Of a stretch of 64,000 bases of DNA, positions 13,448 through 64,000 are shown one piece after another. A program made the translations under genes and the position numbers. Within the stretch, counting starts at the first letter, position 1. Every line of letters begins with the position of its first letter. The DNA comes from an uncultured Spirochaetota bacterium (GTDB lineage Bacteria > Spirochaetota > Spirochaetia > SZUA-6 > Fen-1364): positions 10,013 through 74,012 of the forward strand of contig CAWJSK010000015.1 in the NCBI GenBank assembly GCA_963845535.1, read 5' to 3'. Below the pieces are notes generated by a model. It ran no database searches. It was not told the DNA's origin and saw only the letters and a list, made by a program, of their open reading frames with translations.

Positions 13448-13459
13448 TGCATGTGCCGG

Positions 13460-13553
13460 ATTACCGTCCCTGCGCTGGCATTATCCAGATCAGGTTCAAC
13501 GGGTCGGCGGCTGACAGCCGCCATCTCAGCCCGGTCACACCGAGCCCCCCGAA
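13460..13553 (-). ncRNA. TPP (THI-box) riboswitch aptamer
   Basis: The minus strand reads ...GGGGGGCUCGGUGUGACCGGGCUGAGAUGG...GACCCGUUGAACCUGAUCUGGAUAAUGCCAGCGCAGGGACGG. It contains the invariant CUGAGA and ACCUGAUCUGGAUAAUGCCAGCG elements of the Rfam RF00059 class. Confidence 0.92.
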
Positions 13554-13661
13554 AAAATGTCTTGCTTCCGGATCAAATGTAGCGACAAGGGGCGGGCGCG
13601 TCAACGCCGCTTTTGACACCTCCCCGCAAGTCCGCTATAGTCTGCGCCAGGAGGACAAAAC

Positions 13662-40197: not shown

Positions 40198-40270
40198 CGG
40201 GATGTAGCCTAGCGGCTAAGGCGCCTGCTTTGGGAGCAGGAGAGCGGTGGTTCGAATCCACTCATCCCGA
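40198..40270 (+). tRNA. tRNA-Pro (anticodon UGG)
   Basis: Hand-folded cloverleaf: acceptor CGGGATG/CATCCCG, D stem GCCT/AGGC, anticodon stem CCTGC/GCAGG, loop TTTGGGA, T arm GGTGG-TTCGAAT-CCACT. No encoded CCA. Confidence 0.9.
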
Positions 40271-41731: not shown

Positions 41732-41805
41732 GCGTCTATAGCTCAGCTGGATAGAGCAACAGCCTTCTAAGCTGTGGGTCGCCCGTTCGAATCGGGCTAG
41801 ACGCA
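41732..41805 (+). tRNA. tRNA-Arg (anticodon UCU)
   Basis: Acceptor GCGTCTA/TAGACGC, D arm GCTC-AGCTGGATA-GAGC, anticodon stem ACAGC/GCTGT, loop CTTCTAA, T arm GCCCG-TTCGAAT-CGGGC. Confidence 0.92.
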
Positions 41806-50311: not shown

Positions 50312-52039
50312 TTATGAGGCTGCCTGGATTGAATCGTCCCTCAAGATGATGTCATTTTCATAGATGTCCTCATTGGACTGCTTCTGCATCGCCAATTGAT
50401 ATGTCTTATAGCCACCGCTCAGATTCCTGACTCTGGCAAACCCATGCTGCTTGAGAATGCGAAGCGCAATGTACCCGCGCAAACCCACCTGGCAGTAGAC
50501 GTAGAGGTTCTTCTCCTGAGACAATTCAGAAAGGCGGTCGCGCAGGGAATCCACCGGAATGTTGACCGCGCCGGGGATTGAGCCCTGCTGAAACTCATCC
50601 TGCGTGCGGACATCGATAATCACGGAGGTGGCGCTGTCAATCTGCGGGATCTCGTTCCAATGAAAGACCGGGCAGTCGCCTTTCAGGATATTGGCGGCCG
50701 TATAGCCGGCAATGTTGACCGGATCCTTGGCAGAGGAGTACATGGGCGCGTAGGCGAGCTCGAGTCTCTCGAGATCAAACACCGTCAACCGCGAACGCAT
50801 GGCGGTGGATATGACATCGATCCGTTTGTCCACGCCGTCGTAGCCGATGATCTGGGCTCCCAGCACCCTTCCATCAGGCCGGGAAAACAGCAGTTTGACG
50901 GCCATCAGTGTGCCACCAGGATAGTATCCTGCGTGGGACGGGGAGTGGGTAAAGGACTTCTCGTATGATACTCCCATTCGCTTCAGCGCCCCTTCGTTGG
51001 CGCCGGTGGTGGCCACTGTGATATCGAAGACCTGCACGATGGAGGTGCCTTGCGTGCCTTGGTAGGATTCAGTGACGCCGCAGATATTGTTCGCGGCGAT
51101 GCGGCCCTGCTTGTTGGCCGGTCCGGCAAGAGGGATCAGCGCGGCTTCTCCGGAGGTGAAGTCTTCCACCTCAATCGCATCCCCAACGGCGTAAATGTCA
51201 GGATTGGAAGTCCTCAAGTGCTCATCAACTTTGATCCCGCCCCTCGGTCCGAGCACGACTCCCGCCTCACGCGCCAGTTGGACGTCAGGCTTCACGCCGA
51301 CACCGAGCACGGCCAGATCTGCCCGAAGGATTTTTCCGTCCGTAAGCCGGATTTCCAGGAAACCGCGTTTCTCAGAGAACGAGGCAACGGCCTCCTTGAG
51401 GTAGAACTCCACGCCTTTTGTCTTGAGATGCTGATGGACAAGGGCAGCCATGTCAAAATCCAGCGGCGCGATGACATGGTCAGCGAGCTCGACGATTGTT
51501 ACCCGCGTTCCCGTTGCGGCAAGGTTTTCCGCCACTTCAAGACCGATGAACCCCGCCCCGATGACGACCGCACGTTGCGGCTTCTGTTTTTCAACGAGCT
51601 CCTTGATCTTCAGGGTGTCTGGGATCGTACGCAGGGTGAAGATCCTTTCCGAATGGATGCCCGGAAGATTCGGCCGAAAAGGTTCTGCACCTGGCGATAA
51701 AAGAAGCTTGTCATAGCGCTCGATGTACCTGCTCTCCTTCGCATGATCGAAGATTTCCACCTCTTTCCGCTCAGGAATGATGCGGCGGACTTCTGACCGG
51801 AGCCGAACCTTGATGTGGAACCGCTTCCACATGCTTTCGGGGGTCTGCACCAGCAGATCTTTGGTTTCCGGGATAACACCTCCTATGTGATAGGGCAGGC
51901 CGCAGTTTGCATACGAGATGTAGTCCCCCTTTTCGACAATGATGATCTCTGCCCCCTCGTTGATTCTTCTCAGACGAGCTGCTGCCGTTGCGCCGCCGGC
52001 CACGCCACCTACAATGATAACCTTGAGTGCCATATCCAA
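50312..52039 (-). CDS. CoA-disulfide reductase / NADH oxidase-like flavoprotein with C-terminal rhodanese domain
   Basis: GGVAGGATAAARLRR, active-site SYANCGLPYHIGG, and a C-terminal rhodanese loop YCQVGLRG. Confidence 0.85.
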   Translation of the reverse strand: MDMALKVIIVGGVAGGATAAARLRRINEGAEIIIVEKGDYISYANCGLPYHIGGVIPETKDLLVQTPESMWKRFHIKVRLRSEVRRIIPERKEVEIFDHAKESRYIERYDKLLLSPGAEPFRPNLPGIHSERIFTLRTIPDTLKIKELVEKQKPQRAVVIGAGFIGLEVAENLAATGTRVTIVELADHVIAPLDFDMAALVHQHLKTKGVEFYLKEAVASFSEKRGFLEIRLTDGKILRADLAVLGVGVKPDVQLAREAGVVLGPRGGIKVDEHLRTSNPDIYAVGDAIEVEDFTSGEAALIPLAGPANKQGRIAANNICGVTESYQGTQGTSIVQVFDITVATTGANEGALKRMGVSYEKSFTHSPSHAGYYPGGTLMAVKLLFSRPDGRVLGAQIIGYDGVDKRIDVISTAMRSRLTVFDLERLELAYAPMYSSAKDPVNIAGYTAANILKGDCPVFHWNEIPQIDSATSVIIDVRTQDEFQQGSIPGAVNIPVDSLRDRLSELSQEKNLYVYCQVGLRGYIALRILKQHGFARVRNLSGGYKTYQLAMQKQSNEDIYENDIILRDDSIQAAS

Positions 52040-52068
52040 CCTCCAATCCTTTCGTGGATGCTCCTCGC

Positions 52069-52154
52069 GCCTTATTCGCGGACCACGTCAGGGTCCGCTT
52101 CCAGCTTTGCGGCCAGCTCCTTGCGAAGCTGCTCCTTGGGAATGCTTCTGGCCA
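52069..52154. repeat. 86-bp direct repeat, copy A (gene-remnant side of chrA)
   Basis: 84 of 86 nt identical to 53432-53517. It lies within a 32-codon remnant ORF (52072..52170, minus): MNVRDLARSIPKEQLRKELAAKLEADPDVVRE. Confidence 0.9.
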
Positions 52155-52184
52155 GATCGCGAACATTCATAGACAGACAAACCC

Positions 52185-53402
52185 TCATGCCAATCCCAAC
52201 GCCAGCAGGCCGCTCCACAGGGCCAGCCCGCCAAGAAAGACCCACAGAATGTCAATCTTAAACCAGCGCACTGCCGCAAACGCAGCACCCGCCAAAGCCA
52301 GCGAAGCTGGTCCCGTGAGAGCTGCACCGCCAAGCTGTAGCAGCACCACCGCCAGCAGACCGACGAAAGACGCCATGACCCCGGCCAGCGCGCCGCGCAC
52401 TGCTTTCAGATTTCGAATGTGCGCAAAAACCTCGGTGAACAACAGCGTCATGGCAAAGGAGGGCGAAAACATGGCAAAGGTTGCCAACAGACCGCCCAGA
52501 AAGCCGGCCACCTTGTAGCCGATGAACGTGGCGGTAATCAAGAACGGGCCAGGCGTAATCTGCCCCAGGGCAATCCCATCCGCAAATTGGTTGAGCGGCA
52601 TCCAGTGATGAACGTCCACTGTTTCTGCCTGGATAAGCGGGATGATGGCGGAACCGTTTCCGAATGCCACCGAACCGATCTTGAACAACGATAAGGAGAG
52701 CCTGCCCATTTCTGACCTCAGGCTCCATGAAAAAGCGACCACACCTATGATTACCGCTGCCACCGTCGCTATACCCGCCCAGCGCTTTGCTGATGCGTGT
52801 TCGATTTTGGAGAATGGTTTGCGCGCTTCAGCAGTTTTCCCTTTGCCTGTCACCGGGCGAATCAGCAGAGCGCCCAACGCCAGCGCGACCAACACGATCA
52901 AAACCGCATTGAACTTTAGCAGCAAAGAGACAAAGGCCAGCAGCGTGATGACTGCCTGCGTGCGGTTCTGGATGTTGCGCCCACCCATCTCCAGCGTGAC
53001 GTTGAAGAGGATGCCCACAACCAGCGCTTCCAACCCCGAAAAGAGAGGATGCGCCCAGAGTAAATTGCCGGCGGCGAAGTAGAAGGCAGAAAGGACCGAC
53101 ATCAAAACAAAAGAAGGCAGGACAAATCCAGTTGTCGCAAAAACAGCGCCGATCACGCCACGCAGTTTGTAGCCCACATAGGCGGTGAAATCGACCATCA
53201 ACGGGCCGGGATACAGTTGGACCATTGCCAGCCCTTCGTTCATCTCCTCTTCACTCAGCCAGTGATTATCCATCACCAGCGCTTTGAGTTTCTGCAAGAT
53301 AGCCATGCCGAAGGCCGTGAGGCCGACGATGAAGTAGGAGGAAAAAATGGCCCGCAGGGATACGCGCGGACGGGATTCAGGCTTGTCTAATTCAGCAGTC
53401 AT
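52185..53402 (-). CDS. chrA: chromate ion transporter (CHR family)
   Basis: 405 aa with two homologous halves. Motifs FGMAILQKL...LYPGPLMV and FGNGSAIIPL...GQITPGP. Confidence 0.85.
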   Translation of the reverse strand: MTAELDKPESRPRVSLRAIFSSYFIVGLTAFGMAILQKLKALVMDNHWLSEEEMNEGLAMVQLYPGPLMVDFTAYVGYKLRGVIGAVFATTGFVLPSFVLMSVLSAFYFAAGNLLWAHPLFSGLEALVVGILFNVTLEMGGRNIQNRTQAVITLLAFVSLLLKFNAVLIVLVALALGALLIRPVTGKGKTAEARKPFSKIEHASAKRWAGIATVAAVIIGVVAFSWSLRSEMGRLSLSLFKIGSVAFGNGSAIIPLIQAETVDVHHWMPLNQFADGIALGQITPGPFLITATFIGYKVAGFLGGLLATFAMFSPSFAMTLLFTEVFAHIRNLKAVRGALAGVMASFVGLLAVVLLQLGGAALTGPASLALAGAAFAAVRWFKIDILWVFLGGLALWSGLLALGLA

Positions 53403-53431
53403 GTGCAGTTCCTTACCGCGCGCTTGTCAAT

Positions 53432-53517
53432 GCCTTATTCGCGGACCAAGTCAGGGTTCGCTTCCAGCTTTGCGGCCAGCTCCTTGCGAAGCTGCTCCTT
53501 GGGAATGCTTCTGGCCA
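53432..53517. repeat. 86-bp direct repeat, copy B (3' end of the intact ferredoxin-like gene)
   Basis: Covers the last 27 codons plus the stop of 53435..53785 (...ARSIPKEQLRKELAAKLEANPDLVRE). Confidence 0.9.
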
Positions 53518-53785
53518 ACTCCCGCACGTACTGGTCATCGTGAGGAAATGAAATCGCATTCCAGAGGCAACCCACCTGGCAGTTGTTGCATCCCACCATG
53601 CAGTGATCCTGAAAAAGCACCACTGCCTTCTTCTTTTCAGGATCGTACCCAAAAACGTTTCGCTTCTCCCCGCAGGTGACGACGCAAAAGCCACAACCGG
53701 TGCACTTGTCACTGTTGATCACCGGACCCCAACTGATCTTTGCGCGGTCGATTCCATGCCATTTCGAAAAAAAATCATCAGCCAT
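53435..53785 (-). CDS. ferredoxin-like 4Fe-4S protein (116 aa)
   Basis: WHGIDRAKISWGPVINSDKCTGCGFCVVTC...CMVGCNNCQVGC. Confidence 0.75.
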   Translation of the reverse strand: MADDFFSKWHGIDRAKISWGPVINSDKCTGCGFCVVTCGEKRNVFGYDPEKKKAVVLFQDHCMVGCNNCQVGCLWNAISFPHDDQYVRELARSIPKEQLRKELAAKLEANPDLVRE

Positions 53786-53799
53786 TTCCCTACCCTCCT

Positions 53800-54153
53800 T
53801 TATGTGGCGCCGCTTTTGACAACATGATCAGGAAACTTCTCCAGCCGTGCCTGAAGCTCTTTCTTTACCGTTGGCAAGACCTTGAACTTCGACATTGCTT
53901 TCTTCACGAATTTCTCGGGTGCTTCGGGAAAAGTTATCGCTGTCTCGGGGCACACCCTCCCGCATGTCGTGCATCCGACGGCACAATTGCCGGGATTTGC
54001 CACCAGGTAGCGGTCTTGAGACTTTGACCAGGCGAATACGCCGCTGCCGCAACTCAAAAGACACAACCCACAGTTTGTGCATTTCGATTCGTCGATCGTC
54101 GGATGCCAGACAAAGTTTGACCTTCCGACCCCATGCCATTGCTTTTCCGCCAT
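53800..54153 (-). CDS. ferredoxin-like 4Fe-4S protein (117 aa, paralog)
   Basis: WHGVGRSNFVWHPTIDESKCTNCGLCLLSC...CAVGCTTCGRVCP. Confidence 0.75.
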   Translation of the reverse strand: MAEKQWHGVGRSNFVWHPTIDESKCTNCGLCLLSCGSGVFAWSKSQDRYLVANPGNCAVGCTTCGRVCPETAITFPEAPEKFVKKAMSKFKVLPTVKKELQARLEKFPDHVVKSGAT

Positions 54154-54210
54154 CGCGGTTACCTCCGTTCGAGTGGTTTCCGTTCCTTACTTTGATGATT
54201 GAAAGGACGT

Positions 54211-54630
54211 TCAAATCTTGCTGATCTGTCCCGATACAGGAATCGCCAGCCGCAGGGTCGAAACGACCGTGCTGTTTCGCTCGGCAAGGCCGAGCAGCCT
54301 GCGAAGCTTTTCCTCGTCGACGTCGGTCCGGATCCGCATCTCAAAGCGAATCTCGGTGAGAGTCGGAGGCTTGTCCTGACGCACACCAAAGACGTCCACC
54401 TCCACGTCGGACAGACGCACGCGGCTCAGCTCCGCCACCATGCTGAGGCTGCTGGTCAGGCAGGCGCCAACCGCGGAAAGAAGGGTCTCGACGGCGTTGA
54501 AGCCAGCGGAAGCGTCCCCCCTGTGCGCGCCAAGCACCATGGAGAAGTCCCGCACCGTAGCGGCCGTCCGGATTCCGTCCGGCTGCCGTGCGAGGTGTAC
54601 CTGATAATGCTGTGTACCCATGGCTGCCAT
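54211..54630 (-). CDS. OsmC/Ohr family peroxiredoxin-like protein
   Basis: 139 aa: FNAVETLLSAVGACLTSS...STLRL. Confidence 0.75.
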   Translation of the reverse strand: MAAMGTQHYQVHLARQPDGIRTAATVRDFSMVLGAHRGDASAGFNAVETLLSAVGACLTSSLSMVAELSRVRLSDVEVDVFGVRQDKPPTLTEIRFEMRIRTDVDEEKLRRLLGLAERNSTVVSTLRLAIPVSGQISKI

Positions 54631-54641
54631 CTCTATCTTTC

Positions 54642-54755
54642 TGGCTTAGTGGCAATATTGCCATGATAAAGATATTTCGTCAAGAGGCTCTTGTAAAGAT
54701 CGCAGAACCCCCATCACGCTGTCCTGAGTCGTGGCGTAAAGAATGCAGCATCAAG
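54642..54755 (-). promoter_or_regulatory. promoter-operator module copy 3 plus 114-nt repeat R1 (upstream of osmC)
   Basis: Minus strand: TTGACG (54678-83), 17 nt, CAATAT within the perfect palindrome TGGCAATATTGCCA (54650-63). A second dyad is CAAGAGGCTCTTG (54681-93). Conserved upstream blocks are CGACTCAGGA and GATGCTGCATTCTT. Confidence 0.65.
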
Positions 54756-54850
54756 TCTGGGCTCAAGTTGACACCATAATGGTAGCTTCGCGAGCCGTTG
54801 TTCGTAGCGGATTTCCAAAGCCGCATGTCGAAGCGGAAGGTGATTATATA

Positions 54851-55867
54851 TCAACTGACCGTCAACGCAGGAGTTATTCTTGCGCTGAGCTTCCTGCACA
54901 CCTCGTCGATGGCCGCGTCGTTCAGTGCGATCATGTGATCTGCAAGCGCCGTAAGACAGCTAAGATTTTTCCTTCCGGCGTCATCTATCGCCAGCGAGCA
55001 GCCGCCGAGAGCTGCGTTGATGCGGATATAACGGACTCCGCTCATGCGACTGAGCTGATGGCTGACCGCTTCGCTTTGGCCCGCCGACATGATTGCACCG
55101 ATCGGAAACCCTTTCGCCGGATTCACCCACTCCATGTAGCCCCATGAATATATGTCCCGATAGCGGTACCCATGTTGGTGATCTCCGGTGCCAATGGAAA
55201 GGATGAGAAACTCGGATTCCGTAGGGAATATCTTCGTCGACTCCACGTACGCAAGGCCAGACGGATTGTTCGCGAATACCGCTCCGTCGATCAGTGAGAA
55301 TCTGATGTGCGGCGCGCCAACAGGACTGATCCGTGCGGGAGGAAAGTACGTCGGGGCGGCCGCGGACGCACGCGCAACGTCACGCATATAGAAGTCTGGA
55401 TCTGTCAGCCATTCGCCACGCGCGGGACGACGCTTCATGCAGTGCGGCTGCATCGCTTCCGTGTCGAAACTGGTTATGAGCAGGTTCGTCGCCGCGCTCT
55501 TCAGTGAAGCATCTCCGAAGATCTCCCGAAGGAACCGCTCAAACGGTCCAGGCGAGTATTTGTGACGAAATGCCTGCATGACGGCGTGGATCGCGCTGCG
55601 AAACGACGGTGGGAATATCTCAGTACCGCGGCGCGCATACAATTCGACGATTTCCGAAGCTGAGTAGCGCTCCGTTCCGTCTTCTTTGCGCAGTGCAATC
55701 GCAAGCGCGACAAGCGCTCCGCTGGAGGTTCCTGCGATGAGATCGAAGAGCTCTGAAAATGGCCGGCTTTCACCTGCCAGGTCCAGACGGTGACGGATCT
55801 CCTGAAGGACCCGGGCAGGAAGGAGCCCCCGAATGCCTCCCCCGTCGATCGAAAGAATCGTGACCAT
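54851..55867 (-). CDS. patatin-like phospholipase
   Basis: DGGGIRG, GTSSGA (GxSxG), DGAVFANNP. Confidence 0.88.
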   Translation of the reverse strand: MVTILSIDGGGIRGLLPARVLQEIRHRLDLAGESRPFSELFDLIAGTSSGALVALAIALRKEDGTERYSASEIVELYARRGTEIFPPSFRSAIHAVMQAFRHKYSPGPFERFLREIFGDASLKSAATNLLITSFDTEAMQPHCMKRRPARGEWLTDPDFYMRDVARASAAAPTYFPPARISPVGAPHIRFSLIDGAVFANNPSGLAYVESTKIFPTESEFLILSIGTGDHQHGYRYRDIYSWGYMEWVNPAKGFPIGAIMSAGQSEAVSHQLSRMSGVRYIRINAALGGCSLAIDDAGRKNLSCLTALADHMIALNDAAIDEVCRKLSARITPALTVS

Positions 55868-55873
55868 CGCCGG

Positions 55874-56116
55874 CTATTCCTTGAGGCTTACCACTTTGCG
55901 CTGAAAGCATATTTGATGCGCAGTCCCGCGGGTAGCGTTTGGAGTGGAAGTGTTGGTGAAAGTGCCGATGGCCTTCCTGTTTGTTCCCGCAAGATTGTCA
56001 ACCACGAAGTATGCCGCGGGGACAATCACGCCCGCAGCGTACGAAGCCCTTGTGCAGAGCACAATGTCCTGGTTTGCAGAGTTGGAGTCGCTTTCCGGCT
56101 GAGCCTGGAATATCAA
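55874..56116 (-). CDS. hypothetical 80-aa ORF between pfkA and the patatin gene
   Basis: It overlaps the pfkA stop by 4 nt and ends 6 nt before the patatin start. No motif, so the support is positional only. Confidence 0.3.
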   Translation of the reverse strand: MIFQAQPESDSNSANQDIVLCTRASYAAGVIVPAAYFVVDNLAGTNRKAIGTFTNTSTPNATRGTAHQICFQRKVVSLKE

Positions 56117-57081
56117 TCCAGGCTCCTCGCAAGCTCGAGCAAGTGCAGATCGAGCGGTTTCTTGTTTGCGACCACTTCGGAAAGGGGCGTGGGTTTGATT
56201 TCGCCTTTGATCAGGCCAACCAGAACGCCCACTTCGTCTCGTTCCAATTGATCGGTTGCCGCAGCGCCGAGCCGGCTGGCAAGAATCCGATCAAACGCCC
56301 CGGGGTTGCCTCCCCGCTGAACGTGGCCCAATCTTGTCGACCGGAGGTCAAAGCCAAGCCGCTCGTGGTGTTCGGTAAGATAGGCTGCGAGTTTATCTGC
56401 GTTATATTCAGATCCTTCCGCGACCACGATGATCGCATGGGGCTTTCCCTTTTTGTAGGCTGCTTCGATCCGTTCGGCAAGGATCTCGGGATCCGTCTTC
56501 ACTTCAGGGATGACGACAGCCTCGGCGCCGCCCGCGATGGCAGTCATCAACGCCAGATAACCGCAATCTCTGCCCATGACCTCAAGAATGAACGCCCGCT
56601 GGAGCGACGATGCAGTGTTCTTCAATCGGTCGAGAGCCTCCAAGGCTATATTGAGAGCAGTGTCCACTCCGATTGTCATCTCAGAACCGTACAGATCGTT
56701 GTCAATCGTAGAGGCGACGCCCACGACCGGGAAGTCCATTTGGGACAACGCATAGGATCCTGTCTGAGATCCATTACCACCGATGACCACCAACCCTTCG
56801 ATGTCATGTTCGCGCAGAATGCTCACCGCCTTCAGTTGGGCGGCTCTCGTCTTGAAGTCTGGACAGCGAGCACTTCCCAGGACGGTTCCTCCTCTTTGGA
56901 TTATCCCGCCTACTTCGCGTGGACCGAGAGGGACAGCGTTCCCTGAGATCAGCCCTATGAATCCCTGCTCAAACCCGATGACTTCCCAGCCCCTGTTCAG
57001 ACCTGTGCGCACAACAGCACGTATCGCGGCGTTCATGCCAGGCGCATCACCACCACTCGTCAATACCGCTATCCGTTTCAT
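56113..57081 (-). CDS. pfkA: ATP-dependent 6-phosphofructokinase
   Basis: MKRIAVLTSGGDAPGMNAAIR, IGGNGS, EVMGRDCGYLAL. SD GGAGGA upstream. Confidence 0.9.
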   Translation of the reverse strand: MKRIAVLTSGGDAPGMNAAIRAVVRTGLNRGWEVIGFEQGFIGLISGNAVPLGPREVGGIIQRGGTVLGSARCPDFKTRAAQLKAVSILREHDIEGLVVIGGNGSQTGSYALSQMDFPVVGVASTIDNDLYGSEMTIGVDTALNIALEALDRLKNTASSLQRAFILEVMGRDCGYLALMTAIAGGAEAVVIPEVKTDPEILAERIEAAYKKGKPHAIIVVAEGSEYNADKLAAYLTEHHERLGFDLRSTRLGHVQRGGNPGAFDRILASRLGAAATDQLERDEVGVLVGLIKGEIKPTPLSEVVANKKPLDLHLLELARSLD

Positions 57082-57284
57082 AATGACATCCTCCACAGTT
57101 GCGCTGCATGGCGCGGTCTTCTGAAGAATCCATGCATACCCGTCGGATATTGGACTGCCAGCGCGCCAAGCGAAAGCCACCCAGCGGAAATCAGGGCCTT
57201 GGTCTTTCCAATTCCGTCCCGATTCCGTCGGGTTGGCTTGCGACGTGGACCCGATATTCCTTGTATGCCTATAACAGTCACTCT

Positions 57285-57398
57285 TGGCTTAATGGCAATA
57301 TTGCCATAATAGGGAAGATATGTCAAGAGACTCTTGCAGATACCGCAGGAAACCCCGCATGCAATCCTGAGTCGCGGCGCGAAGAATGCAGCATCGAG
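57285..57398 (-). promoter_or_regulatory. promoter-operator module copy 4 plus 114-nt repeat R2 (about 200 nt upstream of pfkA)
   Basis: Minus strand: TTGACA (57321-26), 17 nt, CAATAT within the perfect TGGCAATATTGCCA (57293-306). The second dyad is CAAGAGACTCTTG (57324-36). It is collinear with R1. Confidence 0.65.
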
Positions 57399-57419
57399 CT
57401 ACTTTTCCACGTGTGCCCA

Positions 57420-58733
57420 TCAACTGCCTGCGAATATGCCATAGAGCAGATACACATTGAGCGCGATGATTATGGCAGTGATCAGGACTATCAGGATTCT
57501 TGTTGCGGCTCTGTTCACCAGAGCCCCCATGAGGTCCTTCCTGCCGGTAAATATCACAAGGGGAATGAGTGCTAAAGGCAGAGAGAAGCTCAGCACCACC
57601 TGGCTGATAACCAGACTCCGTGTGGGATCAAGATTGGTCAGGATGATCACAAATGAAGGCACCATTGTGATCAGACGCCGAAGCCATATGGGTATCCGCC
57701 GATTCAGGAACCCCTTGAGTATGATCTGGCCTGCCTGGGTCACCACCGTGGCCGAGGATAACCCGGAGGCGCACAAAGAAACCGCGAAAACCCATGTAGC
57801 TGCCTGACCCAGGAGAGGCTGAAGTGTCTTGTAGGCTTGTTCCAGTGTTCCTACGTTTTCTATTCCATGCTGGTAGAAGGTACTTGCAGCCATCACAAGC
57901 ATGGCCATATTCACGAGGCTTGCTACTCCCATAGCCACACTCACATCTACGATCTCGAACCGAAACAGTCGTTTCTTCTGGATATCCCCACGTGGAACCA
58001 CGCGGTCCTGTGTGAGCGCAGAATGGAGGATGATTGCATAAGGAGTCACCGTAGCTCCAATAATCCCGGCAGCAAGCACAATACTTTGGCCGCTTTGAAG
58101 TTGGGGAATGATCGCGTGAGTGAGAACTGCACGCCAAGGCGGCTTCACAAACAGGATCTCGATGACATAGCATATTGAGATGATCCCGACGAGGGTGGTT
58201 ATCGTCGTTTCCAGCGAGCGAAATCCAAAACGTTCAAGACCAAGTATCAGGAAAGCGGCCACTCCAGTCAGAAGACCTGCCGACCAGAGAGGCATTCCGA
58301 ACAAAAGATTGAAGCCGACTGTTGCGCCAATGAACCCTGTGAGGTCCGATGCCATGGCACCCACTTCCATCGCGATCCAAAGACCAAATGAGATAGGTCT
58401 CGGGAATTGATCAGCGCAGTGCTCTGCGAGATTTTTCCGCGACGCGATCCCCAGCTTCGCAGCGAGAGCCTGGACGAAAGAGGCCATGACATTGCTCCCA
58501 AGTACCACCCAGAGAAGGAGGTAGCCGTCTTGCGCTCCGGATTGGATGTTCGTGGCGAAATTGCCTGGATCAATGTAGGCTATACTCGCAATGAATGCTG
58601 GGCCCAGAAAGGGGAGAACTCTTCGAAAAAAGACTCTGCGGCTGCGGCCCTCCAGGACTTCGTTTGCGGCCCTTGCAGTTCCGGCGGACATCGAAGACAA
58701 AGGCACTCTGGCAAACCAGTTCTTGAGGCGCAT
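57420..58733 (-). CDS. mntH: NRAMP-family divalent metal (Mn/Fe) transporter
   Basis: LGPAFIASIAYIDPGNFATNIQSGA with about 11 TM helices. The start is uncertain (ATG 58733, ATG 58691 or TTG 58793). Confidence 0.85.
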   Translation of the reverse strand: MRLKNWFARVPLSSMSAGTARAANEVLEGRSRRVFFRRVLPFLGPAFIASIAYIDPGNFATNIQSGAQDGYLLLWVVLGSNVMASFVQALAAKLGIASRKNLAEHCADQFPRPISFGLWIAMEVGAMASDLTGFIGATVGFNLLFGMPLWSAGLLTGVAAFLILGLERFGFRSLETTITTLVGIISICYVIEILFVKPPWRAVLTHAIIPQLQSGQSIVLAAGIIGATVTPYAIILHSALTQDRVVPRGDIQKKRLFRFEIVDVSVAMGVASLVNMAMLVMAASTFYQHGIENVGTLEQAYKTLQPLLGQAATWVFAVSLCASGLSSATVVTQAGQIILKGFLNRRIPIWLRRLITMVPSFVIILTNLDPTRSLVISQVVLSFSLPLALIPLVIFTGRKDLMGALVNRAATRILIVLITAIIIALNVYLLYGIFAGS

Positions 58734-58835
58734 CCGCTTGCAAACTGTAGCGAATTCTGCACAAAAAGACGACGCAATCCGGAGTCGAGTCAATAAGTTG
58801 TTGCCTACCCACGGGCCGTTCCCGAGGGAGCCGAA

Positions 58836-59795
58836 CTAACGGAGCAGCCCCTGGATGATCATTTCGGTTGCCGCCTCCTCGTCCAGACCGCGCGCAAGAA
58901 GGGTCTGAAGCTGCCGGGAGTCCACGCTGCCGATTGCCGCCTCGTGAGTGACGTGCGCGCGGGCATTATTGACCCGGACTATCGGAATGGCCGAGGCTTT
59001 TCCCTTTCCGTGCAGGATTTCCTTGCAATCCACGTGGCCCCGAGATTCCGGGGCGTTCGCTTCAATTTCGTTGACGATTTCGGCCTGCGCATCGTCCATC
59101 AGGGCAAGATGCGAGGTGAGAACAGCGCGGGATTCCGCCCCATTCAGGATGGCCGCCTCGTGGACGCGGATGCGGTCCTCTCCTCTGCCAAACACGCTCA
59201 CCTTCATTTCCGCTACCGACTGGAAACCGCAATCCACCCCGTAATCGATATCCACCTCTCCGGCCCGGCCCGATGTGAGCTGGAAGTCCGAGCTGAAGCG
59301 AGCCCCGTCGCGCAGGCGTACCCGCGTCTTGGGGACCACGACAACACCTCCGGCTGGGCCATGCATATGTCGTTCCGAGTAGACGAGCTCAGCGCCCTTT
59401 TCGATTGTGACGCCTGCGTCCATGACGTGGCGGACCGCTACGGCGTTGGGAAAGGTGCAGCTTGCTACGAACGTGGCCCGCGCGTTCTCCTCGATGTGGG
59501 TTTCGAGGGTGATGTGTTGAAGCCCCTTCGTCGGCACCATGCCGAAACAGAACTGCACCGGCTGCTCGAGGATGGTCCCCGCCGTGACGCGGATTTTCAC
59601 TTTCACCCCGTCTGCCTGTTCCTCAGATTCTACGAGAAGCCCGGGAACCAGGACGGAGCGCAGCACCCGATTGCCGTGGATCTCCACGTGTGCTACGCCG
59701 GGCGCGAAGGAGTGTCGGCCGATCGAGTCCAGAAGCTCCCGCAGAAGCCGCGTGGATTCCAAGACGGCCGCGCTGCCGTTGCCGGCTGCGTTCAT
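58836..59795 (-). CDS. SufB/SufD-family Fe-S cluster assembly scaffold protein (short form)
   Basis: 319 aa from MNAAGNG (ATGA overlap with the sufC stop). C-terminus ...HVTHEAAIGSVDSRQLQTLLARGLDEEAATEMIIQGLL. Confidence 0.8.
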   Translation of the reverse strand: MNAAGNGSAAVLESTRLLRELLDSIGRHSFAPGVAHVEIHGNRVLRSVLVPGLLVESEEQADGVKVKIRVTAGTILEQPVQFCFGMVPTKGLQHITLETHIEENARATFVASCTFPNAVAVRHVMDAGVTIEKGAELVYSERHMHGPAGGVVVVPKTRVRLRDGARFSSDFQLTSGRAGEVDIDYGVDCGFQSVAEMKVSVFGRGEDRIRVHEAAILNGAESRAVLTSHLALMDDAQAEIVNEIEANAPESRGHVDCKEILHGKGKASAIPIVRVNNARAHVTHEAAIGSVDSRQLQTLLARGLDEEAATEMIIQGLLR

Positions 59796-60556
59796 GAGGC
59801 TGCTCCCACGGCATTCTGGTCCGGCACATTCACATGCTTGCAGGGCAGGCACGTGCCCTCGAAATAGGGGATGATCCTGTCTGCCGTTCCCTTTTCGATC
59901 AGTCGGCCGGAGCAGAGCAGAAATGCGTGGTCCGCGTGCCTGAGGACAGAAAGGCTGTGCGTGATCAGGATGACGGTGGTTCCTTCTTCCCGAAGCCTCT
60001 TGATGGCTTCCAGAATGAAGTGCATGGCGTCCATATCCACGCCGGAATCGGGTTCGTCCATCATGACGATCCTTGGCTTCATGGCAAGGATGGAGGCAAG
60101 CTCGATCCTCTTGCGTTCGCCCCCGGAGAGAGTGCGGTCGACCGCGCGTCTGGCGTAGAGATCGGGGTCGAGCCCGACCATGGCCAAAGACTCCCGCATC
60201 GTTCCTTCGCTCTTTTCGGGAGCTCCTGCGAGGACAAACTCCGCCACCCCGAGCCCTTCGAACCGGGCCGGCTCCTGCCAGGCCAGCGTCAGGCCTCGTC
60301 GAGCACGCTCCTGGATGGGAAGATCGCGAATCGACGTTCCATCCAGGAGGATGTCACCTGAGGTCACATGGTAGCCTGGCAACCCCATGATGGCGTGGGC
60401 CAACGTGCTCTTTCCCGCTCCGTTCGGCCCCACAATCGCATGAACGTATCCTCGCCAGACATCCAGGGTGACCCGGTGGAGCAGGGTCTTGCCGCCGGCC
60501 TGGACGCACAGGTTCTCCACGGACAGGACTTCTTTTCGCTCCTGACCAGAGCTCAT
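59792..60556 (-). CDS. sufC: Fe-S cluster assembly ATPase SufC
   Basis: GPNGAGKSTLAHAIMGLPGYHVTSG, LSGGERKRIE, MMDEPDSGVD. Confidence 0.88.
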   Translation of the reverse strand: MSSGQERKEVLSVENLCVQAGGKTLLHRVTLDVWRGYVHAIVGPNGAGKSTLAHAIMGLPGYHVTSGDILLDGTSIRDLPIQERARRGLTLAWQEPARFEGLGVAEFVLAGAPEKSEGTMRESLAMVGLDPDLYARRAVDRTLSGGERKRIELASILAMKPRIVMMDEPDSGVDMDAMHFILEAIKRLREEGTTVILITHSLSVLRHADHAFLLCSGRLIEKGTADRIIPYFEGTCLPCKHVNVPDQNAVGAAS

Positions 60557-60563
60557 GCTTTGC

Positions 60564-60776
60564 CTATCCGCAACATCCCGGCCCCGCTTTTGGCCCGCAG
60601 GTAGAACCGCTGTCGCTGCGGCGTAAAAGCAATATACCTGAGCTCAGGAGCTGACGCGTGCCCTTCCTGTGGCATTGCGGGCACTCAGGGTCGAGTCCCA
60701 GCTCCTTTTCTCGGAAGGTTGCCCGCACTTCGAAAACGCTCTTACAGTGCTGGCATTGATAGTCGTACAAAGGCAT
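60564..60776 (-). CDS. FmdB-family CxxC-CxxC zinc-ribbon protein with C-terminal GCCG
   Basis: MPLYDYQCQHCKSVFEV...CPQCH..., ends PGCCG. Confidence 0.8.
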   Translation of the reverse strand: MPLYDYQCQHCKSVFEVRATFREKELGLDPECPQCHRKGTRQLLSSGILLLRRSDSGSTCGPKAGPGCCG

Positions 60777-60790
60777 TGTGACCTCCCTCC

Positions 60791-61165
60791 TCAGCAGGTG
60801 GAATGCTTGGCAAGGGATGCGAAGTTGATCCCGAGGAGCTCCGTGATTTCTGTGTTGATTTCCCGCAGGAAATAGATTGCTCCCTGTTGGGACCCGGCGT
60901 ATTCCATGACAGCCGGGTCATCCTGCGCCTTGCCCTGAAGCTCCCGCAAGGTATCGATGTCTGGCTGGGTCACGTCTCCGTTGGCCTGCCGCTGGCGCAT
61001 CCTGGCCTGCGCTTCCGAGAGCCGATCCAAAAGACCCCGGGCGTCTGGATCCGCATCGAGGCGGGAACGAGCCTTTTCGTACCGAAGGAAGGGTCCGGAA
61101 GCCAGCAGGCTGTCACACAAGGATTGAGCGGCCGTCTGAAGGGCGGAAGGGATTTCAGTCTGCAT
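60791..61165 (-). CDS. YlbF/YmcA-family (Com_YlbF-like) helical protein
   Basis: 124 aa from MQTEIPS. FLRYEKARSRLDADPDARGLLDRL...LRELQGK, ends KHSTC. Confidence 0.6.
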   Translation of the reverse strand: MQTEIPSALQTAAQSLCDSLLASGPFLRYEKARSRLDADPDARGLLDRLSEAQARMRQRQANGDVTQPDIDTLRELQGKAQDDPAVMEYAGSQQGAIYFLREINTEITELLGINFASLAKHSTC

Positions 61166-61176
61166 CTCTGTGCCTC

Positions 61177-61557
61177 CTACCCGCAGCAGCTTGCGCCGCA
61201 TGAGGCGGCATAGTCCAGCCCAATGGACCCGGACACCATGTCGCCCAACCTTTGGCACAGCCCTGCCAGTTCCGACTGCGCCTTGGAATACTCCACGACA
61301 GACGGAAGAGTGACAAACGCCTGATGCAGCGCATCAAGATCCGCCCGCTGTTCGGCGGTCGCTTCCTTGAGCATGAGAAGCACGCGCAGGGACTGCTCTT
61401 TCTGCTGGTAGGCCTGCATCGCCTCCTGCGCCGTTCGATCCTGCCGGAACTGTTCCTCGGCCTGCTCGAACGCCTTGAATTGCGGCGTTTCAGCCAGAGA
61501 AGCAGCGAAGCCGTGAGCGGCACGCTTGACCGTCTCGAGAGTGGCAGTTTCTTCCAT
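61177..61557 (-). CDS. YlbF/YmcA-family helical protein with C-terminal SCGASCCG
   Basis: 126 aa: FKAFEQAEEQFRQDRTAQEAMQAYQQKEQSL...; a paralog of 60791..61165. Confidence 0.6.
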   Translation of the reverse strand: MEETATLETVKRAAHGFAASLAETPQFKAFEQAEEQFRQDRTAQEAMQAYQQKEQSLRVLLMLKEATAEQRADLDALHQAFVTLPSVVEYSKAQSELAGLCQRLGDMVSGSIGLDYAASCGASCCG

Positions 61558-61575
61558 ATTACGAAACTCCTTTCT

Positions 61576-61872
61576 TTACGTACGATTCCCGCTCAAGAGG
61601 GCTTCAATCGCACGCCGTATGGCTGGCACGGAAATCTTCCCGCCGCTGCTGACCACGTCGCCCTCAGCCAACACCAGCGGTAGCTCAGCATCGACGGGCA
61701 TGGGCGGGCAGTCAGCGTCGAAAAGGTCATGGTACTTCACCTGCACCGCATCTTCGAAGCGTGCTTTCAACTGACCCTGTGCCCAACGCGCCACTTCGCG
61801 CCAGCTTTCCTTCACGCCCTCCTTGCAGGCTACAGGCGCCCCGATGATCTGGATGAGAACGGAGCCTCTCAC
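61576..61872 (-). CDS. thioredoxin-fold protein, ArsD/YuzD (DUF1462)-like, lacking the ArsD Cys triad
   Basis: 98 aa: VLIQIIGAPVACKEG...WAQGQLKARF...LPLVLAEGDVVSSGGKISVPAIRRAIEAL. ATGA overlap with the arsA stop. The family call is from memory of YuzD/ArsD patterns. Confidence 0.5.
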   Translation of the reverse strand: MRGSVLIQIIGAPVACKEGVKESWREVARWAQGQLKARFEDAVQVKYHDLFDADCPPMPVDAELPLVLAEGDVVSSGGKISVPAIRRAIEALLSGNRT

Positions 61873-63719
61873 GTCGCCACCTTCTCCCCGTAAAGTTGCG
61901 CGGCCAGCCGCGAGAGCATTGCCACGCCCTTCACTTCACGGGGCAAAAGCGGTATCTGCACGAGGGGCAGACCGAAGCGTTCGCCTATTTCCGCAAGATA
62001 TTTCTCCTGCATGGCCCGTCGGGCCCGCACAAATGGTGTGGATGCCCGTTCGGGTGGGATGACGAAGTTCGCCACCACAAGACTTGGGCGAATCCCCACA
62101 GTTTCCAGTTCCCGCGCCGCCCGCCACGCTTCGAGAATGGGTGTTGCCTCCGGATACATGACAAAGGCGAAAGTGCTCTGCTCCTGGTCGCGCATCATGT
62201 CGATCACCTGGGCGAACCGCTTCTTGGCAACGTCATCGGCGGCGGAAGCATCCACGGAGGCAAAGACTTTCACATCGATCTGCTTGCTCCAGTCGATGGG
62301 CAGCTCAAGCAGACGAAGGGTGTGCCCCGTCGGGGCGGTGTCGAAAACCACCGCCTGCCAGTCTGGCTGGGAAGCATATTCGATGAACTTGTCGAACGCG
62401 GCCATCTCCTCCGTGCAGGGCGAGTTGAGCTCCTCCTCCATCACCGCGATGGCTGATTCGGGCCGACCGCGCTTGCGGGCATCCTCGAGGATACGCGCCT
62501 TGTAGGTCTCCGCCGCGGTCTTCGGATCGATCTTGACCGCCCACAGGTCAGGCTGCCCTGCGACGGCCGCGATTTTATCTCCAACAGGGGTGTCCAACAC
62601 GTCGCCCAGATGCGCTGCCGGATCCGTGGTCAAAAGCAGGGTCTTGTATCCCTGCTGCGCCAGCCAGACGGCGGTGACGCACGAGGCGACGGTTTTGCCC
62701 ACGCCGCCTTTGCCCGCAAAGAACAGGGTCCGGCGATGGCCGTTGGGCTGGATGCGGGAGCGAATGTCATCGAAGCTCGATGCAAAATCCTCCCCGACGG
62801 TTTTCTCATCTGCCGCGTCAGAGTCCAGCCGAGCCTTCTCGCCGTCAAAGAAGACTCTCCCCACCTCCCGAAGCCCCTCCACCCCCATGATTTCGCCTGG
62901 CAGCAGGATCATGCGCTTCTGAGGCATGGCGAACTCGCGCTTGATCTGAACGAGATAATCAGCCTGCATTTCGGCGCGGGCGGCGAACAGAGGGTCTTCG
63001 GCGTCGTCGGCCTGGATGATGCCGTTGACGATCAAGCGGAAATTGTTGATTCCCAGTTTTTTAAGCTCACCGATGGCGCGCCGTGTCTCCCGGATGGCTA
63101 TGGCTTCGGGGTGCAAGACGAACACAAAGGTCGAGAACGATGCGTTGCGCAGGGCGGCAAGGGCTCGTTCATACTTGAGCTTGGCGTCCTGAATGGCGGC
63201 GGCGGGACCGATGCAGGTCTGCCCGCTGCCCGCGCTGGCGGCGTCAATGGATTGCGTCCATTCGGCGGGCAGTTCCAGCAAGCGGATGGTGTGGCCGGTC
63301 GGGGCGGTGTCGAAAATCACCACGTCGTAAGCGTTTCCGTCCTGAGCGGGCGAATCCAGGAAGTCGGTGAAGCGGTCGAAGGCGGCGACCTCCGCCGTGC
63401 AGGGACCGCTCATCTGTTCTTCCATCACCTGCACCATCTGGGGAGGGAAAGCGGCGCGGATGGGCGCCATGGCGCGGTCAATGTATTCCTGCGTCGACTT
63501 GTCGGGGTCGATTTCCATGGCGGCAAGGCCCGGCACGCCCGCGATCGGCGTGATCTGGTGTCCGATTTCCTGCTCGAACACGTCGGAGAGATTCGAAGCC
63601 GGGTCGGTGGTGACGATGAGAGTGCGCTTCCCCTCGTCCGCATAGCGCACGGCATGCGTACACGCCAGACTGGTCTTGCCCACCCCGCCTTTGCCGGAGA
63701 AGAACATGGACTGGGTCAT
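61869..63719 (-). CDS. arsA: arsenite/antimonite-stimulated ATPase ArsA (two-domain)
   Basis: Two GKGGVGKT P-loops and two DTAPTGHT signatures. Cys are present in the contexts of the R773 metalloid site (SGPCTAEVAAFD, GQTCIGP, NSPCTEEMAAFD). Confidence 0.9.
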   Translation of the reverse strand: MTQSMFFSGKGGVGKTSLACTHAVRYADEGKRTLIVTTDPASNLSDVFEQEIGHQITPIAGVPGLAAMEIDPDKSTQEYIDRAMAPIRAAFPPQMVQVMEEQMSGPCTAEVAAFDRFTDFLDSPAQDGNAYDVVIFDTAPTGHTIRLLELPAEWTQSIDAASAGSGQTCIGPAAAIQDAKLKYERALAALRNASFSTFVFVLHPEAIAIRETRRAIGELKKLGINNFRLIVNGIIQADDAEDPLFAARAEMQADYLVQIKREFAMPQKRMILLPGEIMGVEGLREVGRVFFDGEKARLDSDAADEKTVGEDFASSFDDIRSRIQPNGHRRTLFFAGKGGVGKTVASCVTAVWLAQQGYKTLLLTTDPAAHLGDVLDTPVGDKIAAVAGQPDLWAVKIDPKTAAETYKARILEDARKRGRPESAIAVMEEELNSPCTEEMAAFDKFIEYASQPDWQAVVFDTAPTGHTLRLLELPIDWSKQIDVKVFASVDASAADDVAKKRFAQVIDMMRDQEQSTFAFVMYPEATPILEAWRAARELETVGIRPSLVVANFVIPPERASTPFVRARRAMQEKYLAEIGERFGLPLVQIPLLPREVKGVAMLSRLAAQLYGEKVAT

Positions 63720-64000
63720 CTGGCGCCCCCATTCAGTGATGCTTTGACTTCGTCAATACTTGGGTAAGCGCCCGTTTTGACAACCTGGCCCCGCACAACG
63801 GTGATCGGAAGGCATTCCATCTGCTTTGCGCGCACCAGGCGCATCACCTCGGCGTTGCCAAGAAAGGCCTTGGGGTTGCTGCTCATCTGGTAGCGTTCCA
63901 CGCGCAGGTTGTCGCGCTGGAGAGTCAGGATCATCTCATTGACGTCCAGCAGGGTCTGGTCAAGTGTAGGTCCGCAAAGTCCCGTAGGACAACACATCGG
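63716..64000 (-). CDS. arsD: arsenical metallochaperone ArsD (5' end beyond the window)
   Basis: (P)MCCPTGLCGPTLDQ...ERYQMSSNPKAF...LPITVVRGQVVKTGAYP carries the Cys12/13/18-type motif. The frame stays open to the window edge. Confidence 0.85.
   Translation of the reverse strand, partial: PMCCPTGLCGPTLDQTLLDVNEMILTLQRDNLRVERYQMSSNPKAFLGNAEVMRLVRAKQMECLPITVVRGQVVKTGAYPSIDEVKASLNGGAR

Follow-up and report, generated by a model that had tools for sequence, protein, structure and literature searches.

The window analyzed here, a stretch of 64,000 nucleotides from an uncultured Spirochaetota bacterium (contig CAWJSK010000015.1), ends in eight minus-strand genes that run from position 64000 down to 58836 in the order arsD-arsA-X98-Y1-Y2-Zn-smsC-smsB. 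X98 is a 98-residue protein, Y1 and Y2 are two YlbF-like paralogues, Zn is an FmdB-type zinc ribbon and smsC-smsB is a pair related to sufC and sufBD. The conserved unit of this operon is arsD-arsA together with the X98/Y1/Y2/Zn module, and not the fusion of arsenic genes with iron-sulfur (Fe-S) cluster assembly genes, which is the least conserved part of the operon. The locus itself is an arsenite-resistance operon, of which the window has the distal part. An initial annotation, made from the letters of the sequence, had proposed this gene order on the minus strand, with the 5' end of arsD lying outside the window, and we recovered all eight genes as it described them. Our confidence in the comparative findings, which are drawn from sequences, is high.

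Conservation of the module in related loci

We mapped the window proteins onto 31 non-redundant related loci, which belong to Chloroflexota and to one Actinomycetota metagenome-assembled genome (MAG). Homologues of Y1 were found in Chloroflexota metagenome contigs and genomes, and the 26 loci taken from species-representative genomes are nearly all from Anaerolineales or other Chloroflexota, with one from an Actinomycetota MAG. The phyletic range seen thus comprises Chloroflexota, one Actinomycetota MAG and, as described below, Halobacteria. ArsA was encoded upstream of Y1 in 22 of the 23 loci with enough upstream sequence, and ArsD likewise in 22 of 23. Y2 followed Y1 in every one of 27 loci, and Zn and X98 were each present in 23 of the 27. 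The usual order was arsR-arsD-arsA-[X98]-[arsC]-[acr3]-Y1-Y2-Zn-[X98]. Far from being confined to one genome, the order recurs in about 30 other loci and, in reduced form, in haloarchaea and, since it does so in many independent contigs, we do not attribute the arrangement to chance.

The operon had also been described as having no arsenite pump downstream. This holds for the window, where no homologue of acr3, arsB or arsP was found within the 64 kb, but not for the family, as Acr3 or ArsP was encoded in 7 of the 13 loci having both flanks of at least 5 kb. An ArsB/Acr3 membrane partner for ArsA was likewise absent within 10 kb in the relatives L006 and L008. In the close relatives that have SmsB (L006/L007 and L008), the operon begins CDF-arsR-arsD. 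As a separate observation, arsA and arsC of one Chloroflexota operon are separated by a gene of the PIG-L family (BshB/MshB-like deacetylase; L004, 7157-7858; L005, 2478-3179), which may hint at a low-molecular-weight thiol other than glutathione.

The haloarchaeal hcsL-hcsS counterpart

When plasmids were searched in translation with Y1, the only matches were haloarchaeal and fell on genes named hcsL and hcsS in the annotation. The order was the same in Natrinema, Halorubrum and Halobacterium NRC-1 (pNRC100): arsC-arsR is divergent from arsD-arsA-hcsL-hcsS, and the stop and start codons of the latter genes overlap. On pNRC100 (NC_001869.1, L047), hcsL-hcsS occupy positions 6004-6551, between arsA and arsR2-arsM. 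Overall, hcsL was found on 27 haloarchaeal plasmids, with arsA directly abutting in 21 of 25 annotated records.

The haloarchaeal operons resemble that of the window in several respects: YlbF-like proteins follow arsA, with translational coupling and with CC endings there, the ArsA is of the same subtype and the operon has no pump. Y2 resembles HcsL (24% identity over 109 residues, E 7e-11), and the Y1 tail resembles that of HcsS, whose last 20 residues (IGLEYGDVCGAGSDCC) align with it (IGLDYAASCGASCCG). They differ in that the window encodes two full-length YlbF-like proteins ending in CCG and C instead of CC, adds a zinc ribbon, a thioredoxin-fold protein and SmsCB, and scores below the cutoffs of both the HcsL and the ArsA_halo models. 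Neither X98 nor the Zn protein nor any other third partner accompanies the haloarchaeal genes. Judged by gene content and protein similarity, arsD-arsA-hcsL-hcsS is a reduced version of the Chloroflexota module.

The initial annotation knew of no described system with this composition. As far as the literature is concerned this stands, since we found no paper on halo-CC-star, HcsL or HcsS, none linking ArsA with YlbF-like, FmdB-like, zinc-ribbon or YuzD-like proteins, none tying arsenite to the YlbF family and no relevant one for arsenite together with sufB. It has to be amended in that NCBI annotation models already name HcsL and HcsS ('halo-CC-star') as well as ArsA_halo. The accessory module has therefore been named in part by NCBI curators, and no paper was found that describes it. 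In Halobacterium NRC-1, deletion of arsADRC leads to arsenite sensitivity and deletion of the chromosomal arsB homologue has no effect, and an unknown pump has been proposed as the exporter (reviewed in PMC3600143 and PMC1447603). The pNRC100 hcsL and hcsS genes lie inside the ars cluster studied as arsADRC/arsR2M and are not mentioned in these two reviews.

ArsD and ArsA

ArsD and ArsA are a textbook metallochaperone-ATPase pair. Even with its N-terminus cut by the window edge, the window ArsD passed NF033727 (95.4 bits, cutoff 90), and it matched PF06953 with 92 bits. Within its motif PMCCPTGLCGP, MCCPTGLCG aligns with MCCSTGVCG of the R773 ArsD (C12/C13/C18), and the equivalents of C12, C13 and C18 (CC-x4-C) were invariant in 8 aligned ArsDs. 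Full-length orthologues in relatives have 115-119 residues and are encoded downstream of an ArsR-family gene; the ArsDs of these loci are short forms that lack the C-terminal CC pairs of the R773 protein.

ArsA, an ATPase of the kind activated by As(III)/Sb(III), is a two-domain protein (PF02374, 472 bits) with GKGGVGKT and DTAPTGHT each occurring twice, in both halves. Aligned to the R773 structure 1F48, its C107, C169 and C435 correspond to C113, C172 and C422, and these three metalloid-site cysteines were invariant in 24 of 24 ArsAs from related loci. The cysteine sites that had been read as intact in both ArsA and ArsD are thus borne out by alignment to R773. ArsA passed the subfamily model TIGR00345 (471 bits, cutoff 135) and scored below the cutoffs of the canonical equivalog TIGR04291 (521 bits, cutoff 650) and of NF041417 ArsA_halo (651 bits, cutoff 800). 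By alignment score it is closer to the haloarchaeal type (43% identity and 503 bits with Natrinema ArsA) than to the enterobacterial type (347 bits with R773 ArsA, 1F48). It also weakly matched the ParA/NUBPL, MrpORP and ApbC models.

Compared with arsRDABC of R773, the operon shares the overlap of arsD and arsA, the ArsD CC-x4-C motif, the ArsA metalloid cysteines, P-loops and DTAPTGHT motifs and, in the relatives of the window, an ArsR-family gene upstream. By contrast, arsA is not followed here by arsB or acr3, a conserved module of four additional small cysteine-bearing genes has been inserted, ArsD is without C-terminal CC pairs, and ArsA falls under the canonical equivalog cutoff.

Y1 and Y2, a YlbF/Ric-like pair

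Y1 and Y2 matched PF06133 (Com_YlbF) with 56.1 and 52.4 bits, well above the cutoff of 23.9. Both fell below the cutoff of 140 for NF041416 HcsL (66 bits for Y1 and 47 bits for Y2) and, by these scores, they are related but not equivalent to HcsL. Over its whole length, the Y1 profile matched the RicA/YmcA structures 2PIH and 6PRH with E about 1e-7.

The cysteines of the pair are concentrated in its tails. Y1 has a C-x3-CC-G tail plus an invariant internal cysteine, C101, and the tail xCxxxCCG was found in 117 of 120 close homologues, the other 3 having CCR or CCS. We then considered the wider Y1 family, for which an exhaustive search of 1.84 billion representatives gave 567 clusters at E<=1e-3. 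Among the best 150 of these 567 clusters, 54 representatives ended in CCG, 33 in CC and 11 in C, the rest being mostly fragments, so that 87 of the best 150 ended in CCG or CC. Y2 ended in ...(S/T)C or ...CC in nearly all related loci. The CC endings occur in other Chloroflexota members, and in the window Y1 ends in CCG and Y2 in C.

Natural Y1-Y2 fusions of about 265 residues were found (P0366, P0367, P0409 and P0427), in which the Y1 cysteine motif becomes internal and the terminal cysteine of Y2 is retained. Such fusions are a Rosetta-stone sign that hints at a Y1-Y2 complex. An AlphaFold2 (AF2) model of the fusion P0367, made without an alignment, is of low confidence (mean predicted local distance difference test score, pLDDT, 68; predicted template modelling score 0.45; tails below 50) and shows only that the protein is all-helical.

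The closest described counterpart is the RicA/RicF/RicT set of B. subtilis. Ric and Y1/Y2 have the Com_YlbF fold family in common, and both comprise a pair of paralogues, one with a multi-cysteine C-terminal tail and the other with a single C-terminal cysteine, together with a third small protein with Cx(n)CC (Zn here, RicT there). In the RicF-RicA heterodimer the C-terminal cysteine tails act jointly, and the ligands of RicAFT cluster 2 are two cysteines of the RicF tail, the C-terminal cysteine of RicA and one cysteine of the RicT CX4CC pair (PMC6751060). The authors of that study reported that RicAF alone takes up no cluster and noted that no case is known of vicinal cysteines serving as ligands of the same cluster (PMC6751060). 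The two sets differ in that Ric carries a pair of [4Fe-4S] clusters and is a partner of RNase Y in the RNA maturation of Firmicutes (PMC6751060), whereas the proteins described here stand in an arsD-arsA context and carry an invariant vicinal CC pair at the very end.

Zn and X98

Zn is an FmdB-type zinc ribbon (TIGR02605, 48.5 bits against 31.3; PF09723, 44.3 bits against 34.4) with two CxxC motifs, at cysteines 8, 11, 32 and 35. Its tail reads C-x7-CC-G in the window, and the form C-x6/7-CC-G (CGPxxGxGCCG) is kept across related loci.

At E<=0.01, X98 had no match in Pfam or NCBIfam, the DUF1462 and ArsD models included, and its profile found nothing significant among PDB sequences. It has 363 homologues, some of which carry the Joint Genome Institute (JGI) name 'disulfide oxidoreductase YuzD', and two invariant cysteines, C16 (APxAC) and C55 (DCPP). 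An AF2 model built from an alignment of 30 homologues has a thioredoxin-like fold (pLDDT 86.8). The top Foldseek match of this model was 1XG8, a DUF1462/YuzD structure (E 3.4e-4, TM score 0.60, 23% identity), followed by thioredoxins. In the model, X98 shares with YuzD/DUF1462 and ArsD the thioredoxin fold and, with ArsD, a cysteine in the loop after strand 1, at the position of ArsD C12/C13; it differs from both in having a single cysteine in that loop and a second invariant one in DCPP. We considered X98 as an ArsD paralogue and rejected this because the profile match is too weak; the label that we retain is YuzD/ArsD-like by fold.

All the gene calls of the initial annotation were correct, including that of X98 as a thioredoxin-fold, YuzD-like protein. 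Of the families that it had named, Com_YlbF, FmdB, ArsD, ArsA_ATPase and SufBD were recovered with profile models, while DUF1462 was not recovered by sequence and the YuzD likeness is one of fold.

Operon organization and neighbouring genes

The genes are listed in Table 1. ATGA stop/start overlaps were read at the arsD|arsA and smsC|smsB junctions, as had been claimed, but the third overlap attributed to this type, arsA|X98, is GTGA, the start codon of X98 being GTG. The remaining gaps, from X98 through Y1, Y2 and Zn to smsC, measure 18, 11, 14 and 7 nt, within the 7 to 18 nt given before, and GGAG-type ribosome-binding sites are visible at three of these four gaps. For Y2, a GTG open reading frame of 155 residues was rejected, as orthologues of 124-125 residues place the start at the ATG at 61165. 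No membrane-spanning or hydrophobic stretch was found in the sequences of X98, Y1, Y2 and Zn.

Table 1. Genes of the ars operon in the window
Gene	Position	Strand	Remarks
arsD	63716 to beyond 64000	-	5' end cut by window edge
arsA	61869-63719	-	616 aa
X98	61576-61872	-	98 aa
Y1	61177-61557	-	126 aa; C-terminus SCGASCCG
Y2	60791-61165	-	124 aa; C-terminus KHSTC
Zn	60564-60776	-	70 aa; C-terminus CGPKAGPGCCG
smsC (sufC-like)	59792-60556	-	254 aa
smsB (short SufBD-like)	58836-59795	-	319 aa

In agreement with the initial annotation, no terminator-like site was found on the minus strand within 58836-64000, and the sole promoter-like match on that strand is weak (9/12) and lies inside smsC. Every gene from arsD through smsB has a similar G+C content at third codon positions (GC3, 0.65-0.77), and the value is lower in the next genes, mntH (0.58) and pfk (0.61), so that in composition the eight genes make up a single block. 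MntH (57420-58793) was rejected as a member of the operon, given its longer intergenic region, its GC3 of 0.58 and its absence at that position in relatives.

Downstream, a minus-strand run at 50312-58793 encodes MntH/Nramp, PFK, a patatin, OsmC, a 2x[4Fe-4S] ferredoxin, the chromate transporter ChrA and a Pyr_redox-rhodanese protein (CoA-disulfide-reductase-like). This redox and metal-stress run is partly syntenic with the relative L008. The only Rfam matches above the gathering score in the window were a TPP (thiamine pyrophosphate) riboswitch (71.6 bits) and two tRNA genes, at 13450-13561 (-), 40198-40270 (+) and 41732-41805 (+). No other suf gene (sufD, sufS or sufE) was found within the 64 kb.

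The SmsCB Fe-S assembly pair

The last two genes, first called sufC and a short sufBD, do belong to these families and can be named more precisely: compared with solved structures, the pair is the minimal Fe-S system SmsCB (SMS, SUF-like minimal system), with SmsC as the ATPase and SmsB as its short partner of the SufB/D family. The best solved relative of smsC was M. jannaschii MJ0035 SmsC (E 5e-64 over 237 of 254 residues, 10-246; about 1e-36 for SufC), and the SmsB family profile matched the MJ0034 structures 9H78 and 9H7Y with E 1e-83 over positions 29-312 (1e-7 for SufB). SmsC scored 182 bits with TIGR01978 SufC, below the cutoff of 212.8. SmsB scored 71 bits with PF01458 and 65 bits with the NCBIfam SmsB model NF052511, below the cutoff of 650 of a model whose profile has a length of 445 and seems fitted to archaeal proteins of greater length. 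C214 and CLPC of the window SmsC align with C218 and the C239/C242 CxxC of MJ0035 (LLCSG/LICAG; CLPC/CGKC). In the solved M. jannaschii SmsC2B2, C218, C239 and C242 ligate a [4Fe-4S] cluster, which is built at this exposed Cys/CxxC site, and SmsCB is complete and self-sufficient in that organism, SMS having no carrier of its own (PMC12192291). The window pair is like SmsC2B2 in its near-full-length match and in the retained cluster-ligand cysteines. It differs in being bacterial and inside an ars operon, while the usual state of this bacterial subfamily, which misses the NCBIfam SmsB and SufC cutoffs here, is a free-standing two-gene unit.

Homologues of SmsB numbered 1562, with 55-60% identity in Spirochaetota, Goldbacteria, Saccharicenans and others. 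The association of SmsB with ars genes was assessed in eight hand-picked genomic contexts, which are the basis of the following statements. A plain two-gene SmsCB unit with no ars genes was present in three of them (Rectinema, Goldbacteria and other genomes). In a Saccharicenans MAG (L036), we observed arsR, a radical-SAM/SPASM gene and smsC-smsB, with ArsP, Thioredoxin_3 and Acr3 within 5 kb, and an ArsR-family gene adjoins the SmsCB pair in two further contexts (L039 and L043). The SmsB proteins of related ars-linked contigs are 78-93% identical to that of the window. One of these islands, L037, has two other genes between SmsCB and the module.

The initial annotation, whose interpretation we find supported in part, had put a metalloid-protected Fe-S assembly unit at the core of its proposal, an idea that hangs on this pair. 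Of the 27 non-redundant loci, just 2 have SmsB with the module, both near relatives of the window (L006/L007 and L008), and smsC carries deletions in two contigs. In L008, the Zn gene is absent, smsC begins 12 nt after Y2 and has a 75-nt deletion and a frameshift (10767-10900). In L037 (9100-10855), the Walker A region is missing from smsC and a frameshift lies close to the end of smsB. Such damage may reflect either decay of the ars-linked copy or an assembly artefact; we considered sequencing error, which could account for single-base frameshifts, but a 75-nt deletion and a missing Walker A are atypical of read errors. Since both contigs are metagenome assemblies, the damage was given limited weight. 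In our reading, SmsCB was attached in this lineage only and is under selection that is weak or varies; its coupling is tight in the window, but it does not belong to the conserved system.

A radical-SAM/SPASM protein with a conserved, cysteine-rich C-terminus, CFGN..P.CGGCLWAQG.IQCP, was encoded in L036 (3904-5208) and L037 (12179-13414). Its gene adjoins smsCB under an ArsR-family gene in L036 and stands with acr3, RseC and arsC in the Chloroflexota-like L037; it is possibly an arsenic-related enzyme.

Proposed function and alternative explanations

We tentatively favour, at a little short of an even chance, a reading in which the Y1-Y2 pair, Zn and X98 bind As(III)/Sb(III) on their thiol tails and work with ArsD and ArsA, SmsCB being a lineage add-on. 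That the Cys-tailed proteins may act as As(III) acceptors or chaperones had been offered as the second option of the initial annotation, and it appears to be the best fit to the comparative data, as these proteins travel with arsR-arsD-arsA regardless of Fe-S genes. Y1 and Y2 would form a heterodimer, as modelled on RicF-RicA and backed by the natural fusions. Together with X98 and the tail of Zn, the flexible thiol tails at the C-termini of Y1 and Y2 would create three-sulfur sites like those of ArsD (CC-x4-C) and ArsA, so that the module could capture As(III)/Sb(III) and exchange the metalloid with ArsD/ArsA. With three thiols each, two of them vicinal, Y1 and Zn match the CC-x4-C site of ArsD in number and kind, and we infer that this inventory suits three-coordinate As(III), with Y2 contributing its terminal thiol. 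The small proteins may then be metalloid acceptors, donors, chaperones or regulators that feed the ArsA ATPase. Because Y1 has only 3-4 tail and internal cysteines per about 125 residues, these proteins would make poor bulk metalloid sinks, and we consider a chaperone or a regulator the likelier role; a soluble Y1-Y2 heterodimer acting with Zn and X98 is likewise favoured by the thiol inventory, the short ArsDs, the absence of membrane segments and the small number of cysteines. To our knowledge, glutathione is absent from both groups that carry the module (Chloroflexota and haloarchaea), and a protein-based thiol carrier could be useful where glutathione is absent. As for SmsCB, arsenite would be expected to attack the exposed Cys/CxxC site of SmsC, and co-transcription of smsCB with the ars genes would then provide more Fe-S assembly under arsenite.

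Several points weigh against this reading. The mechanism is drawn only from gene context and motifs, and homology alone would lead to the Fe-S alternative discussed below, because the equivalent cysteines of RicA/RicF ligate [4Fe-4S] and not a metalloid (PMC6751060). The association with arsD-arsA has exceptions: an Anaerolineales locus (L009, 6166-9841) has arsR-acr3-Y1-Y2 with no arsD or arsA within 9 kb upstream, and for a small number of hcsLS pairs in haloarchaea, no arsA is listed as a neighbour. The profile-profile match of X98 with ArsD is weak (probability 20%), X98 C16 falling on ArsD C13. The part played by SmsCB faces the low number of linked loci (2 of 27), the damaged smsC of L008 and L037 and the fact that the family usually stands alone.

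These last observations suit an explanation that we consider rather unlikely on the whole, namely that smsCB is an ordinary or spare Fe-S machine that came to lie beside the ars operon in one lineage, by gene-order drift in a stress island and without any functional link to arsenic. SmsB is next to the module only in close relatives of the window, SmsCB stands alone in Rectinema, Goldbacteria and other genomes and it is self-sufficient in M. jannaschii (PMC12192291). However, the junction with Zn is a 7-nt gap with no promoter- or terminator-like site, the GC3 of the pair is like that of the ars genes and unlike that of the downstream genes, and the 12-nt spacing of smsC after Y2 in L008, where Zn is missing, indicates that tight linkage survived rearrangement. 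Other phyla also have SmsCB homologues that adjoin ArsR-family genes or Acr3/ArsP (L036, L039 and L043), and the exposed SmsC Cys/CxxC is a plausible As(III) target, as can be inferred from the M. jannaschii work (PMC12192291). An Fe-S role for the small proteins themselves, which is the main competitor of our reading, is also unlikely: Y1, Y2 and Zn would correspond to RicF, RicA and RicT, with a [4Fe-4S] cluster held between C-terminal cysteines. Such a complex might be an arsenite-labile cluster sensor or regulator of ars, or an Fe-S carrier or acceptor served by SmsCB in this lineage. The profile match of Y1 with RicA/YmcA is in line with this, as are the multi-cysteine tail of Y1, the terminal cysteine of Y2 and the C-x7-CC of Zn, which mirror the RicAFT ligand layout (PMC6751060); smsCB, a system without a carrier (PMC12192291), begins 7 nt after Zn in the window, and ArsA is in the same P-loop class as Fe-S carrier ATPases. 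Nevertheless, the module tracks arsD-arsA in 31 loci and on 27 haloarchaeal plasmids and does not track Fe-S genes, it has no third partner in haloarchaea, and no RicT/PSP1 homologue was found in any locus examined. RicAF alone is reported to accept no cluster, and the invariant feature of the Y1 family is the vicinal CC pair, whereas vicinal cysteines are not known to share a cluster (PMC6751060).

The two other explanations concern the thiols and the tails. X98 and the Cys tails might form a thiol-disulfide relay that keeps the ArsD/ArsA sites reduced or supports arsenate reduction, instead of carrying metalloid. This would agree with the thioredoxin fold of X98, nearest to YuzD, with the JGI name of its homologues, with the low-molecular-weight arsC that often lies between arsA and Y1 and with the Thioredoxin_3 genes common in these ars islands. 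We regard it as very unlikely, given that X98 has no CxxC and its two cysteines are 39 residues apart, that haloarchaeal operons have CC-tail proteins without X98 and that arsC is missing from many loci, the window included. The CC and CXC ends of eukaryotic Rab proteins are lipid-modified, and a lipid-modified terminal CC or CCG could in principle tether to the membrane a helical adaptor that docks ArsA onto an unrecognised exporter. The motif stands at the extreme C-terminus in most family members and many loci have no pump nearby. Even so, we know of no lipid modification of a terminal CC in these groups, an enzyme that could add one is not conserved in the loci, the natural Y1-Y2 fusions have the Y1 motif in their interior and the four proteins are all without a hydrophobic segment. 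We take such an adaptor to be extremely improbable, even though the ArsA-dependent resistance of Halobacterium needs no ArsB (PMC1447603, PMC3600143).

The metalloid-handling reading that we favour has a more far-reaching version, which we consider quite unlikely as it stands: the Cys-tailed proteins (Y1, Y2, Zn and X98 in Chloroflexota, HcsL and HcsS in haloarchaea) would be the missing partners of a distinct ArsA subtype, in which ArsD-ArsA confers resistance to arsenite and antimonite without ArsB or Acr3. ArsA might then, for instance, drive with ATP the loading of metalloid onto protein thiol tails, or its hand-off to an unrecognised exit route.

Significance

Overall, a conserved Cys-tailed set accompanies ArsD-ArsA in two distant groups, Chloroflexota and Halobacteria, which belong to two domains of life. 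If the missing-partner version is true, it would explain why Halobacterium NRC-1 needs arsADRC and not arsB, as reported by 2006. The haloarchaeal hcsL and hcsS are concrete, testable candidates for pump-independent ArsA function, in the genetically tractable Halobacterium NRC-1. As a smaller point, the attachment of SmsCB suggests that Fe-S assembly at exposed cysteines may be an arsenite target for which some anaerobes compensate. If our reading of Y1 and Y2 is true, the YlbF/Ric fold would have a second biochemical role, in metalloid or cluster handling, beyond RNA processing in Firmicutes.

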